A stretch of DNA of 64,000 nt from Escherichia coli (GTDB lineage Bacteria > Pseudomonadota > Gammaproteobacteria > Enterobacterales > Enterobacteriaceae): assembly GCF_044324875.1 (NCBI RefSeq), contig NZ_CP172185.1; one strand, given 5' to 3'. The notes beneath the pieces were generated by a model that was given only the letters and a program-made list of their open reading frames with translations, searched no databases and had not been told where the DNA came from. A program made the translations under genes and the position numbers. Below are positions 4,186 to 59,660 of the stretch, piece by piece (within the stretch, counting starts at the first letter, position 1; each line of letters opens with the position of its first letter).

Positions 4186-4941
<756 letters not shown>

Positions 4942-4987
4942 TTTTTACCGTTGCATCATGTCGCCCAATATGATGCTTGCTCGTACC

Positions 4988-5021
4988 AGGCCCCTGCAAT
5001 TTCAACAGGGGCCTTTTTTTA
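4988..5021 (+). terminator. Rho-independent terminator after cutC
   Basis: Stem AGGCCCCTG / CAGGGGCCT followed by a T7 run. Confidence 0.6.
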
Positions 5022-42706: not shown

Positions 42707-42792
42707 ACATTTAAGCTGATGACCACCGCGCTTTTTATTGACCATTTTGCACGCAAACTGGAAAACCTGGCGTCGTCATCTATTCTTAAAGG

Positions 42793-42896
42793 GCAAGGCA
42801 ACTAAGCCTGCATTAATGCCAACTTTTAGCGCACGGCTCTCTCCCAAGAGCCATTTCCCTGGACCGAATACAGGAATCGTGTTCGGTCTCTTTTTA
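42793..42896 (+). ncRNA. sdsR: sRNA SdsR (RyeB), RpoS-dependent Hfq-binding sRNA
   Basis: GCAAGGCAACTAAGCCTGCATTAATGCCAACTTTTAGCGCACGGC... ending in terminator hairpin ACCGAATACAGGAATCGTGTTCGGTCTCTTTTT; matches my memory of SdsR and its yebY-pphA location; ends approximate. Confidence 0.6.
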
Positions 42897-43029
42897 TCTG
42901 TTAAAAGCCAGAAGCATTCCCTTCGCTGACTTTATAGTCAACCATAACACACACTCTACTGTCTGAGTCCAGCGTTTTTTAACATTCTTGTTAAGATTAT
43001 GTGATCTTTAGCGCGGGAGGAAAATATTG

Positions 43030-53422: not shown

Positions 53423-54304
53423 ATGATGCGAATCGCGCTCTTCCTGCTAACGAACCTGGCCGTAATGGTCGTTTTCGGGCTGGTACTGAGCCTGACAGGG
53501 ATACAGTCGAGCAGCGTTCAGGGGCTGATGATCATGGCCTTGCTGTTCGGTTTTGGTGGTTCCTTCGTTTCGCTTCTGATGTCCAAATGGATGGCATTAC
53601 GATCTGTTGGCGGGGAAGTGATCGAGCAACCGCGTAACGAAAGGGAACGTTGGCTGGTCAATACTGTAGCAACCCAGGCTCGTCAGGCGGGGATCGCTAT
53701 GCCGCAAGTGGCTATCTACCATGCGCCGGACATCAACGCTTTTGCAACCGGTGCGCGCCGTGATGCCTCTCTGGTTGCTGTCAGCACCGGTTTGCTGCAG
53801 AACATGAGCCCGGATGAAGCCGAGGCGGTAATTGCTCACGAAATCAGCCACATCGCCAATGGTGATATGGTCACCATGACGCTGATTCAGGGCGTGGTGA
53901 ACACCTTCGTTATCTTTATTTCCCGTATTCTGGCGCAGCTTGCCGCGGGTTTTATGGGCGGAAATCGTGATGAAGGTGAAGAGAGCAACGGCAACCCGCT
54001 GATCTACTTTGCGGTTGCAACGGTTCTGGAACTGGTGTTTGGTATTCTGGCGAGCATTATCACCATGTGGTTCTCGCGTCATCGTGAATTCCACGCCGAT
54101 GCGGGTTCAGCAAAACTGGTTGGTCGCGAGAAAATGATTGCTGCATTGCAGCGCCTGAAAACCAGCTATGAACCGCAAGAAGCAACCAGCATGATGGCTT
54201 TCTGCATTAACGGTAAGTCGAAATCGCTCAGTGAGTTGTTCATGACTCACCCGCCGCTGGATAAACGTATTGAAGCTCTGCGTACGGGTGAATACCTGAA
54301 GTAA
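53423..54304 (+). CDS. htpX: Membrane zinc metalloprotease HtpX
   Basis: 293-aa ORF with HEISH zinc-binding motif ([11 protein letters not shown]). Confidence 0.9.
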
Positions 54305-54320
54305 TATGAAGTAAATACTA

Positions 54321-54352
54321 AAAAGCGCGTCCTGATCGACGCGCTTTTTTTG
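54321..54352 (+). terminator. Rho-independent terminator after htpX
   Basis: GCGCGTC...GACGCGC stem followed by a T7 run. Confidence 0.6.
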
Positions 54353-54354
54353 TG

Positions 54355-55070
54355 CACAGAAAACCCCCAGCTAGGCTGGGGGTTCCGGAAAGCTTTCAGC
54401 TTTGAGCCAGTTATTAAAACCCCTTTTGATTTGTTAAAACACCTTGCGGTCTGGCAACTGCAAGTGTCAAACAAGTGTCAAACAAGAAATCAAAAGGGGG
54501 TCCCAATGGGGAACGAAAAGAGCTTAGCGCACACCCGATGGAACTGTAAATATCACATAGTATTTGCGCCAAAATACCGAAGACAGGTGTTCTACAGAGA
54601 GAAGCGTAGAGCAATAGGCTGTATTTTGAGAAAGCTGTGTGAGTGGAAAAGTGTACGGATTCTGGAAGCTGAATGCTGTGCAGATCATATCCATATGCTT
54701 GTGGAGATCCCGCCCAAAATGAGCGTATCAGGCTTTATGGGATATCTGAAAGGGAAAAGCAGTCTGATGCTTTACGAGCAGTTTGGTGATTTGAAATTCA
54801 AATACAGGAACAGGGAGTTCTGGTGCAGAGGGTATTACGTCGATACGGTGGGTAAGAACACGGCGAAGATACAGGATTACATAAAGCACCAGCTTGAAGA
54901 GGATAAAATGGGAGAGCAGTTATCGATTCCCTATCCGGGCAGCCCGTTTACGGGCCGTAAGTAACGAAGTTGGATGCAAATGTCAGATCGTGTGCGCCTG
55001 TTAGGGCGCGGCTGGTAAGAGAGCCTTATAGGCGCATTTGAAAAACCTCCGGCTATGCCGGAGGATATTT
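54355..55070 (+). mobile_element. IS200 insertion sequence (about 710 bp); ends approximate
   Basis: Left-end perfect hairpin CCCCCAGC-TAG-GCTGGGGG (54364-54382), tnpA ORF matching IS200 TnpA, right-end hairpin CCTCCGGC-TAT-GCCGGAGG (55047-55065); size matches IS200. Confidence 0.8.
54506..54964 (+). CDS. tnpA: IS200 transposase TnpA (Y1 HuH)
   Basis: 152 aa from ATG at 54506: MGNEKSLAHTRWNCKYHIVFAPKYRRQVFY... with HIHMLVEIPP HuH motif; ORF track extends upstream through the leader (54350). Confidence 0.9.
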   Translation: MGNEKSLAHTRWNCKYHIVFAPKYRRQVFYREKRRAIGCILRKLCEWKSVRILEAECCADHIHMLVEIPPKMSVSGFMGYLKGKSSLMLYEQFGDLKFKYRNREFWCRGYYVDTVGKNTAKIQDYIKHQLEEDKMGEQLSIPYPGSPFTGRK

Positions 55071-55071
55071 A

Positions 55072-56445
55072 TTATGCCCAGGCTCGTGGCTGAGTGATAC
55101 GTAAACCACTGACACAGGCAGCAATTACTGCCAGAATAGCCGCAGCCATCAGCGAGACGTGCGTACCATTATCACCAAACTGATTTAGCATCAGCGCCAC
55201 CAGCGCCGCGCCACTACTCTGACCCAATAGACGAGCCGTCCCTAACATGCCACTGGCCCCACCGCTACGTTCGCGCGGAGCGGAGGTTATAATGGTGTGG
55301 TTATTGGGTGACTGGAATAAGCCAAATCCAGCGCCACATAAGATCATCGGCCAGATAATATTGATATCCGCAGGTGACGCGGGCAGCAGAACCAGGGAAA
55401 AAAGCCCCGCAGCCATGATGAACAACCCTAAAGCACCCAGCAATCCTGCATGTACGCGTTCAATCAAATAGCCTGCCAGCGGAGCCATCACCATCGTTGC
55501 TAACGGCCACGGTGTCAGAAGTAAACCTGTTTCGACTTCACTACGCCCGAGCACGGTTTGCAGGTAAAAGGGCAGGGAAACCATTGCCAGCATTTGTGCG
55601 CAGAAAGAGCAAACAGATGTGCAAATAGAAAGTGAAAACAGCGGGATACGCAGTAAATCCACCGGTAGCAGCGGTACGGGAAGAGAAAGCTGGCGGCGAA
55701 TAAAGAAAATACCAACGACAACCATTACCACCAGTTCCGCACCAATCAATGTCAGCGATTGCCCCTGAGCGAAACCACTCAACGCAGTGATAAGCAGGCC
55801 GAAGGTTAACGCGTTCATCACGGCGCTGGGCAGGTCGAAACGGGGTTTACTGGCGCGAGAACCATTGGGTGGCAGAAAACGCATTGCCAGAAGCAGGGCG
55901 ATAATACCCAACGGTACGTTGATTAAAAATAACCATTTCCAGGATGCGATGGAGAGGATTGCTGCAGCAATTGTCGGCCCGGCAGCAGAAGAAACGGCAA
56001 CAATAAACGAGTTTATGCCCATCCCTCTACCCAGAAAACGTTGTGGATAGATCAGGCGGATAAGTGCGGTATTAACGCTCATCAACGCTGCACCGCCGAA
56101 ACCTTGTATGACACGCGCAAGGGTGAGCATTTGCAGCGAATCAGAAAGGGCGCAGAACAGTGAAGACAACAGAAAAACGACCAGACCGCATTTATAAATA
56201 CGTCGATAGCCAAACATATCGCCCAGAAACGAAAACGAGAGCAGGGAGATGACAATGGCGATTTGATAGGCGTTCACTACCCAGATGGAACTGGCTGGCG
56301 TGGCATGAAGGTCCGTGGCGATTGTTGGCAGGGCGACGTTGGCGATTGCGCCGTCAAGGACAGCCATCGAAATACCAATCACAATGGTTAATATCGCACC
56401 GTATCGCTGGGGCAATGGCAGGCCGTCGGCCTGAACTTTTGGCAT
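55072..56445 (-). CDS. yebQ: MFS transporter YebQ
   Basis: ORF 55072..56556 (494 aa); internal Met MPKVQADGLPLPQRYGAILTIVIG gives 457 aa; 14-TMS MFS-like. Confidence 0.85.
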   Translation of the reverse strand: MPKVQADGLPLPQRYGAILTIVIGISMAVLDGAIANVALPTIATDLHATPASSIWVVNAYQIAIVISLLSFSFLGDMFGYRRIYKCGLVVFLLSSLFCALSDSLQMLTLARVIQGFGGAALMSVNTALIRLIYPQRFLGRGMGINSFIVAVSSAAGPTIAAAILSIASWKWLFLINVPLGIIALLLAMRFLPPNGSRASKPRFDLPSAVMNALTFGLLITALSGFAQGQSLTLIGAELVVMVVVGIFFIRRQLSLPVPLLPVDLLRIPLFSLSICTSVCSFCAQMLAMVSLPFYLQTVLGRSEVETGLLLTPWPLATMVMAPLAGYLIERVHAGLLGALGLFIMAAGLFSLVLLPASPADINIIWPMILCGAGFGLFQSPNNHTIITSAPRERSGGASGMLGTARLLGQSSGAALVALMLNQFGDNGTHVSLMAAAILAVIAACVSGLRITQPRAWA

Positions 56446-58460: not shown

Positions 58461-59129
58461 TCCTTCCTCAATCTTGAGTAACCCCGTCGTTGAAGGGTTA
58501 CTCAATTCATCCTGATTATACGCACTGTCATGGTGCAACTGCTTCAAATTAAAACTCTGGTCTGACTTCAAATAATTATCATATTATTTATTTGCGTAAC
58601 GGGATATCAGAAAAAGATATTTAGCCCATTAATTTATTAGGATGTTTACATCGGATTTGTGATTAAGCGTGGTATTATTTATTAGCGAAACGTTTCTCTC
58701 TTGATTTTTTTGCGCATTTATCAATTTTTCTTATTTTAAATTTACAATACCTTTGGCGATTGACTTCTCTTTGGGGTGATCTATAGCCGTTAACTGACTG
58801 TTTTATGAGAAAAAGTGATATAACTTTTTATTCATTGCATAGCAGAAAATGTGATATTGCACGCACTATGTAATAACTTCTCCCACTGGCCTGGAACAAC
58901 TGAACTTATTGAACTATGTTAGAAAATACGTCAGTTTAAGTATCTGCCTGAACTGGCAAGGTTAAGCACAATGATATATCGGCGCGTATTCCGTTGCATA
59001 AGTGTGCAAAAAAAGTGGAAGACGTATCGAGATTTGTGCGTCTGATCGAGACATGTTTAAAAATGGCTTGCCATAATTAACGTTGTATGTGATAACAGAT
59101 TTCGGGTTAAACGAGGTACAGTTCTGTTT

Positions 59130-59273
59130 ATGTGTGGCATTTTCAGTAAAGAAGTCCTGAGTAAACACGTTGACGTTGAATACCGCTTCTCTGCCGAGCC
59201 TTATATTGGTGCCTCATGCAGTAATGTGTCAGTTTTATCTATGTTATGCCTGCGGGCGAAGAAAACAATCTAA
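59130..59273 (+). CDS. yobF: Small protein YobF
   Basis: Not in the ORF track; 47-aa [50 protein letters not shown] read from the sequence, immediately upstream of cspC. Confidence 0.8.
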
Positions 59274-59285
59274 GGAATTTTTCAA

Positions 59286-59495
59286 ATGGCAAAGATTAAA
59301 GGTCAGGTTAAGTGGTTCAACGAGTCTAAAGGTTTTGGCTTCATTACTCCGGCTGATGGCAGCAAAGACGTGTTCGTACACTTCTCTGCTATCCAGGGTA
59401 ATGGCTTCAAAACTCTGGCTGAAGGTCAGAACGTTGAGTTCGAAATTCAGGACGGTCAGAAAGGTCCGGCAGCTGTTAACGTAACAGCTATCTGA
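59286..59495 (+). CDS. cspC: Cold-shock-domain protein CspC
   Basis: 69-aa ORF with RNP motifs KGFGFI and VFVHF. Confidence 0.95.
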
Positions 59496-59541
59496 TCGAA
59501 TCCACTGATCTGAAGTGTGAATACGCTTCAATCTCGCTATA

Positions 59542-59568
59542 AAGCCTCGTCGAATGCGAGGCTTTTTA
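59542..59568 (+). terminator. Rho-independent terminator after cspC
   Basis: AAGCCTCG-TCGAATG-CGAGGCTT followed by a T-run. Confidence 0.55.
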
Positions 59569-59660
59569 CTTTGCTTTATCTTCGCTCCAGTCGTTCGGAT
59601 ATTTGCCCGCCGCGTGATTCGCGTTACACTTGCGGCCTTTAGTGTCCTGCCGGAGTTGTC

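Follow-up and report, generated by a model that had tools for sequence, protein, structure and literature searches.

The htpX-yebQ locus and its IS200C element

The 64,000-nucleotide stretch of Escherichia coli contig NZ_CP172185.1 analyzed here (hereafter, the window) holds one copy of an insertion sequence (IS) of the IS200 group, positioned between the convergent genes htpX and yebQ. htpX (53423-54304, plus strand) encodes a 293-amino-acid (aa) protein, takes its name from matching RefSeq loci, and is co-oriented with tnpA, the transposase gene of the element. yebQ (55072-56445, minus strand) encodes a major facilitator superfamily transporter that is 457 aa long by homology and follows the RefSeq annotation of homologous loci. 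In the empty site, the two genes share a bidirectional intrinsic terminator (54320-54351), recognizable as an inverted repeat with a GC stem (54325-54331/54338-54344), the loop CTGATC, and a T-run (54345-54351). K-12 has an identical terminator with the yebQ stop immediately behind it, and in the window the structure registers as a minus-strand hit in a terminator scan. Its T-run is the target of the IS200 insertion.

Aligning the window with the empty site of K-12 W3110 and the occupied site of EcPF15 places the insert at 54352-55073, with a 2-nucleotide (nt) T/T ambiguity at the boundary. The insert is 722 bp long, comprising the canonical 711 bp and an 11-bp duplicate. A preliminary description of this DNA had an element of about 710 bp filling the gap between the htpX terminator and yebQ at 54355-55070. 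The gap is indeed filled, but the element reaches about 3 nt further at each end. The insert begins with GTGCACAGAAAACCCCC and ends with GGAGGATATTTATT. These limits are matched by copies elsewhere: at eight other loci, the 711-nt sequence recurs with identical ends at 99.3-100% identity, and the ends GTGCACAG... and ...GGAGGATATTTATT are unchanged over at least eight independent insertions. The suggestion that IS200 is absent from K-12 holds for W3110, whose record matches the flanks alone, in a single place, as an empty site without IS200. The junction there reads ...GACGCGCTTTTTTT/ATGCCC..., and 45 bp separate the two stop codons. This 45-bp spacer plus 722 bp accounts for the whole 767-bp htpX-yebQ spacer of the window, so that a target-site duplication is absent, and the junction alignment contains no flank repeat apart from the T/T ambiguity.

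The element has no terminal inverted repeats (GTGCACAG... and ...ATATTTATT are not mutually inverted) and carries subterminal hairpins at both ends. Its sole family-supported open reading frame (ORF) is the 152-aa tnpA; there is no tnpB, and the size is the roughly 0.7 kb of the IS200 group. The flank 5' of listed IS200-type left ends nearly always ends in TT, mostly TTTTT or TTATT, and the flank here does the same; the element's own right end terminates in TTATT. RefSeq, through its PGAP annotation pipeline, names the TnpA at the same locus 'IS200/IS605-like element IS200C family transposase'. The isoform name IS200C rests on this naming of the same-locus copy and on DNA that is 99.3-100% identical to copies so named. 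Judged from its sequence, the element is an intact IS200C (IS200/IS605 family, IS200 group), ordinary and already annotated.

Positions in the published IS200 anatomy were transferred to the window by setting nt 1 at 54352. The left-end hairpin (54362-54384, plus strand), first described with an 8-bp stem, is in fact a perfect 10-bp stem (AACCCCCAGC/GCTGGGGGTT) closed by the loop TAG, and forms the first helix of the Rfam family STnc490. By analogy, it corresponds to IS200 nt 12-34 and is presumed to be the left-end structure bound by TnpA. In the published system, the nt 12-34 hairpin is a bidirectional terminator that blocks read-through into tnpA (PMC4513863). The right end (54993-55073, plus strand) consists of an imperfect inner hairpin (54993-55036), the previously noticed right-end hairpin, now placed at 55046-55064 with an 8-bp stem, and the terminal ATATTTATT.

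The transposase gene (54506-54964, plus strand) is intact and encodes a 152-aa Y1 HUH transposase, as had been proposed. TnpA matches Pfam Y1_Tnp (1.7e-37) and the NCBIfam equivalog transpos_IS200 (145.9 bits, cutoff 55), and together with the Rfam STnc490 match and the RefSeq IS200C annotation at the same locus, these matches bear out the identification of the element as an IS200 copy. Solved TnpA structures align over residues 5-133 (PDB 2ec2, 2f4f, 2a6m from IS608, and 2xm3 from ISDra2), and the HUH motif (H61-I-H63) and Tyr125 are readable in the sequence. The exact protein is widespread, and it is identical at 151/152 residues to the RefSeq IS200C TnpA WP_000526135.1. A 204-aa ORF (54350-54964, plus strand) was considered as an in-frame upstream extension of tnpA and rejected. 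It lacks a ribosome-binding site, crosses the terminator hairpin, and starts (TTG 54350) before the published tnpA transcription start at about nt 40, which makes it a probably meaningless by-product of mechanical listing; the frameshift that the 11-bp insertion causes upstream leaves the tnpA frame open back to this TTG.

Both neighbors have been spared. The htpX terminator is intact after insertion, and the yebQ stop codon lies where it had been reported, at 55072-55074 on the minus strand, with two of the three bases of its TAA supplied by the element's terminal TT. Because the element ends in TT, yebQ keeps its reading frame. Directly after the yebQ stop, the terminator scan picks out a terminator-like structure on the minus strand, made up of the right-end hairpin and the TTTTTC behind it. 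The insertion leaves htpX and yebQ intact, and the locus itself matters little.

The insertion is shared by a sizeable lineage of E. coli. Of 5,426 complete E. coli genomes, 170 have the element at exactly the htpX-yebQ site; 2,465 (~45%) carry one IS200 leader or more, for 9,524 places in total (median 2, maximum 35). The EcPF15 copy at the same locus differs from the window copy by 4 single-nucleotide polymorphisms. Its right IS junction is one T longer (L001 4013-4014 vs window 55073/55074), giving 1,311 nt vs 1,310 nt in most occupied genomes; the homopolymer at the insertion point differs in length. The C-terminus of YebQ (window 55074-55090) reads ...PRAWA* in the window and in EcPF15, and ...PRSRA* in K-12. 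A metagenome scaffold (L014) carries IS200C at the same site yet has the K-12-like yebQ allele, a combination implying that recombination has occurred across the locus, or else that this terminator received separate, independent insertions.

The tnpA leader contains an 11-bp tandem duplication

The IS200 leader and its antisense RNA, art200, are represented in Rfam by STnc490 (RF01405). This model matches the window at 54362-54496 over its full length (1-124) with 125.8 bits against a gathering threshold of 56. Within the match, the leader contains a single 11-nt insertion relative to the Rfam consensus, and the same insertion relative to EcPF15. The leader stem-loop (54420-54499, plus strand) has lower-stem arms at 54420-54435/54484-54499; it is recovered as an inverted repeat, from the Rfam structure, and in folds, with RNA folding z-scores of -4.6 and -6.0. 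It corresponds to the stem-loop of IS200 nt 69-138 that occludes the Shine-Dalgarno (SD) sequence (PMC4513863). The SD of tnpA, AAGGGGGT (54494-54501, plus strand), is paired in the lower stem here, and the same motif is reported in PMC4513863. An art200 gene is predicted on the minus strand at 54415-54516 from the published ends. The published RNA is 90 nt long with its 5' end at IS nt 153/154 (PMC4513863), and by analogy the version encoded here is predicted to be about 101 nt.

The insertion is one half of a tandem duplication (54461-54482, plus strand), supported by Tandem Repeats Finder (TRF), the Rfam consensus, and EcPF15. Two exact units of CAAGTGTCAAA occupy 54461-54471 and 54472-54482 and are followed by CAAG; TRF gives a period of 11 with 2.4 copies matching at 100% over 54461-54486, confirming the repeat as initially noted. 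By arithmetic, about 2e-4 exact tandem repeats of period at least 11 are expected by chance in 722 bp. Deleting one unit leaves 711 nt that match a copy from another locus (L005) with 100% identity. Taken together, this identity and the low chance expectation indicate a true duplication, not a coincidence. The repeat spans IS nt 110-131, or tnpA -45 to -24, which places it on the upper stem's 3' side and inside art200. In the canonical sequence, TGTCAAA is flanked by CAAG on both sides (CAAG-TGTCAAA-CAAG).

Two other interpretations of the repeat were discarded. A new promoter was considered since the minus-strand unit, TTTGACACTTG, contains a perfect -35 TTGACA, but there is no -10 at suitable spacing, and a promoter scan of 54352-55073 found no promoter-like site. 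An ancestral two-unit state that was lost elsewhere was rejected, as all the remaining copies, from E. coli and other genera alike, carry just one unit.

The duplication is private to one genome

We searched for the duplicated leader at several levels. With a 161-bp probe, none of the 9,524 E. coli IS200 leader places gave a full match, and the best full-length value, 93.2%, is that of one 11-nt gap. A 60-nt BLAST probe across the duplication was uninformative, as copies without the duplicate joined two pieces over 49 record bases. We therefore relied on a 36-nt probe chosen so that single-unit copies cannot seed. This duplication-specific 36-mer had zero matches in the E. coli genomes and 72,556 plasmids; masking of a tandem repeat by the low-complexity filter of BLAST is conceivable, although seeds overlapping the repeat did work with the 60-nt probe. 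An exact 26-mer had 0 matches in 100,044 species-representative genomes. In the metagenome collection, the same 26-mer had two matches only, both of them minisatellites in low-complexity contigs unrelated to IS200, and these were dismissed.

Leader length gives the same picture. The distance from the left-end hairpin to the tnpA ATG is 131 nt in 39/46 measured IS200-type leaders and 130 nt in 3, while the window copy alone measures 142 nt; it is also the only one of the 46 with a tandem repeat. The preliminary description had hesitated to call the duplication canonical, and this doubt proved justified: Rfam treats the unit as an 11-nt insertion, and no other IS200 copy examined has the duplicate. 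As far as the searched sequences tell, the duplication is non-canonical and private to one genome. Its use is chiefly that of a strain-specific marker, and it also provides a natural mutant for the role of upper/lower stem spacing in translational and antisense control by the IS200 leader.

Predicted effect of the duplication on leader structure

In the predicted RNA folds, the extra unit is accommodated as a bulge at the upper stem's base. The minimum free energy of the mRNA leader is -36.1 kcal/mol with the duplicate vs -37.2 kcal/mol without it, and that of art200 is -34.4 vs -35.5 kcal/mol, with the same architecture in each pair. The probability that the SD is unpaired is 0.089 in both versions. 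The energy needed to open the 8-nt SD is 13.3 kcal/mol with the duplicate vs 15.3 kcal/mol without, and for a larger footprint, 20.5 vs 24.0 kcal/mol. Pairing between the mRNA and its cognate art200 is fully complementary; with the canonical art200 of another copy, the duplex is predicted at -169 vs -176 kcal/mol, a small loss. In the published system, the features on which repression depends are the lower stem and the kissing contact between the upper terminal loops (PMC4513863). In the models, the lower stem, the terminal loops from which antisense pairing begins, and complementarity in cis are all unaltered by the duplication. With the determinants of repression predicted to be intact, a neutral or only mildly derepressing allele would be expected, and we regard this as the most likely outcome.

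IS200-group elements usually lie directly after terminators

The position of the window copy is not exceptional for IS200C. All nine of the E. coli IS200C insertions fetched (9/9) directly follow a GC-rich hairpin and T-run. To extend this beyond E. coli, the left-end hairpin 19-mer was scanned in the 100,044 species-representative genomes, yielding more than 120 stretches from very distant phyla. Among the unique left-end contexts, 82/104 (79%) have a strict terminator-like hairpin with a T-tail that ends at the element boundary. Control positions rarely do so: 31/5,000 random positions from the same loci (0.6%), 135/5,000 TT-ended positions (2.7%), and 187/3,000 T-rich positions (6.2%) passed the same rule. 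Several of the misses show imperfect or long-loop hairpins by eye that fall outside the strict rule, so the true fraction may exceed 79%. The register is exact: nearly every element begins on the last T of the T-tract. Orientation is likewise fixed, and tnpA reads in the same direction as the transcript that the terminator ends. In a 2025-26 preprint, the over-representation of upstream terminator-like sequences is reported to be strongest for IS200/IS605 elements. The terminator association is the usual pattern of the group, known in outline, and not a coincidence.

The element's right end, a hairpin followed by ATATTTATT, resembles this target. We also observed head-to-tail tandem IS200-type copies (the IS1541-type L109, L110, and L112), in which GTGCCCAGAAAA... 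begins right after the ...GGAGGATATTTATT of the other copy. Such tandem copies are consistent with the right end mimicking a hairpin with a T-rich target. The likeness of the right end and the tandem copies together suggest that the terminator is recognized as a mimic of the right end. Landing at the end of the T-tract explains why IS200-type elements so frequently abut terminators and rarely do harm.

Origin and consequences of the insertion and its duplication

The overall explanation that we favor, and consider highly probable, is that IS200C inserted at a normal terminator site and later gained a duplication through slippage, with little effect. Several points count against parts of it. 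Leader length is strongly conserved, suggesting that indels are not freely tolerated, so that neutrality of the duplication is no more than likely. The opening energy of the ribosome-binding region is predicted to be 2-3.4 kcal/mol lower, and translation could rise somewhat. The terminator association could in part reflect the survival of harmless insertions rather than target choice, and the duplication itself could conceivably be an assembly artefact. Were the duplication instead a gain-of-function regulatory allele, its bulge would loosen the SD-occluding stem-loop or alter the pairing or stability of art200, leading to more transposase. The predicted drop of 1.9-3.4 kcal/mol in SD-region opening energy points that way, as does the location of the duplication (tnpA -45..-24) within the -60..-23 region footprinted by art200 (PMC4513863). 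The otherwise high conservation of leader length implies function, and Ellis et al. suggest that the absence of bulges may limit the spread of antisense pairing down the stems (PMC4513863). Yet the duplicate leaves the SD pairing probability unchanged, 13 kcal/mol are still needed for opening, and neither the lower stem nor the terminal loop nor complementarity in cis is disrupted. An advantageous allele should also have spread, but this one was found nowhere else searched and the window has a single copy; we consider a gain of function improbable. Even less probable, in our estimation, is a sequencing or assembly error in a genome that truly carries the canonical 711-bp IS200C. The uniqueness of the duplication among all collections searched would fit an error, and IS200 is multi-copy in many E. 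coli genomes, where repeats are error-prone in assembly. However, the remainder of the element matches a known copy perfectly, and the exact 11-bp tandem unit is bounded by 4-bp microhomology. A duplication bounded in this way is a classic product of slippage, whereas typical assembly and base-calling errors are homopolymer indels or collapsed repeats.

How the terminator association arises is a separate matter. One model is structure-guided targeting, in which a terminator exposed on the single-stranded lagging-strand template mimics the right end and TnpA integrates at the end of its T-tract; we give this model about an even chance. If it is true, terminators would be a programmed 'safe harbour' that shields tnpA from read-through, htpX-yebQ would exemplify a property that belongs to the IS200 group as a whole rather than to this locus, and the leader duplication would be merely an incidental mutation on top. 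Alternatively, IS200 may enter any T-rich site without recognizing terminator structure, with insertions past terminators surviving. Intergenic sites past terminators are the least disruptive, the authors of the preprint read the enrichment as persistence combined with limited transposase expression, and targets of the family are known to be specified by a short sequence of four or five nucleotides rather than by structure (PMC5027513). Selection of this kind sits poorly with the exact register and the fixed orientation relative to the terminator, with an enrichment of ~13-fold even over T-rich positions (79% vs 6.2%), and with a right end that is itself a hairpin plus ATATTTATT and is found in head-to-tail tandem copies. 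We see survival alone as a rather unlikely explanation, and we tentatively favor active targeting of terminators over mere survival.

Under the favored history, IS200C would have inserted by single-strand 'peel and paste' transposition directly 3' of the T-run of the htpX/yebQ terminator, with the tnpA-sense strand as lagging-strand template. The plus strand has positive GC skew in 12/15 windows, including around the element, which points to the tnpA-sense strand being the lagging-strand template; the active (top) strand of the family is known to lie preferentially on this template (PMC5027513). The right end of the element would then supply yebQ with a substitute terminator-like hairpin. That the htpX terminator and the yebQ stop are kept and yebQ has this substitute hairpin probably explains the persistence of the insertion in a whole E. 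coli lineage. The 11-bp duplication would have been gained after insertion, and we infer that replication slippage between the two CAAG tetranucleotides flanking the unit produced the extra copy. The extra unit is expected to bulge both in the tnpA leader and in the complementary art200, which is presumably expressed in this strain, and to be functionally neutral or nearly so.

Other features of the window

The 20.3 kb of conserved core genes upstream of the insertion (34001-54300; ptrB ... prc, htpX) has a best match of 99.0% among the 5,426 complete E. coli genomes, although synteny is complete; the lineage of the window is not closely represented among these genomes. Other Rfam matches at gathering level are MicL (4713-5020, plus strand), the RyeA/SdsR (SraC/RyeB) pair (42755-42899, minus strand/42796-42895, plus strand), and a cspA-type thermoregulator leader (59110-59570, plus strand). 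MicL, RyeA/SdsR, and the cspA-type leader are ordinary E. coli features.

Comparison with known IS200/IS605 elements

The closest relatives of the window copy are the other IS200C elements of E. coli, with which it shares the 711-bp sequence, the 152-aa TnpA, and, as in the 170 complete genomes, the htpX-yebQ insertion. The window copy alone has the extra unit at 54472-54482. Three further IS200C copies (L008, L009, and L012; GCA_900149875.1, LT903847.1) are cut inside the left-end hairpin (IS nt 18) or the right-end hairpin (nt 698). The interrupting element is of the IS4 family, with a 457-aa Tnp_DNA_bind/DDE_Tnp_1 transposase and IS50-like ends (CTGTCTCTTGATCAGATCT / CTGTCTCTTATACACA), and it may prefer IS200 hairpins as targets.

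The IS200 of Salmonella enterica (Lam and Roth; regulation in Ellis et al. 2015, PMC4513863) is the regulatory counterpart, and the Rfam family that matches the window copy at 125.8 bits was built on it. It has the same left-end terminator hairpin, an SD-occluding stem-loop, and the near-perfect SD AAGGGGGU. Its antisense RNA, art200/STnc490, spans the 5' untranslated region together with tnpA's first three codons (PMC4513863), an arrangement that is predicted here as well. The Salmonella element is 707 bp long, in contrast to the 711 bp of IS200C, and the window copy additionally has the 11-nt insertion in the upper stem, on its 3' side.

IS1541 of Yersinia pestis and Y. pseudotuberculosis is closely related to IS200, has the same left-end hairpin 19-mer, and expresses STnc490 according to the literature. 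Probable IS1541-type copies in our scan (L108-L134, starting with GTGCCCAGAAAA) share the terminator-adjacent insertion pattern. In Yersinia, an IS1541 copy separates pheL from pheA, a position that would fit an insertion behind the attenuator terminator of pheL. Unlike the E. coli element, IS1541 resides in another host at ~30-40 copies per genome, and its first 12 nt are slightly different, reading GTGCCCAG rather than GTGCACAG. The 19-mer, CCCCCAGCTAGGCTGGGGG, also occurs exactly in IS200 relatives of very distant taxa, namely Oxalobacter, Mailhella/Desulfovibrio, Peptococcaceae, metagenome-assembled genomes (MAGs) of other Bacillota, Saccharibacteria, Elusimicrobia, Vibrio ruber, Brenneria, and Dickeya. 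This conservation suggests wide horizontal spread or a strong constraint from TnpA binding. Some elements in Firmicutes MAGs (L041 and L097-L107) carry the same 19-nt hairpin in a right-end-like context.

The paradigms for the mechanism of the IS200/IS605 family are IS608 of Helicobacter pylori and ISDra2 of Deinococcus. Both encode homologous Y1 HUH TnpA proteins (2a6m, 1.1e-18; 2xm3, 4e-16), and they share with the window copy the subterminal hairpins, the lack of a target duplication, a left end 3' of a short specific sequence, and a bias toward the lagging-strand template (PMC5027513). They differ in carrying tnpB and in targeting TTAC and TTGAT, whereas the element at htpX-yebQ has no tnpB and sits at the end of a T-tract beside a hairpin.

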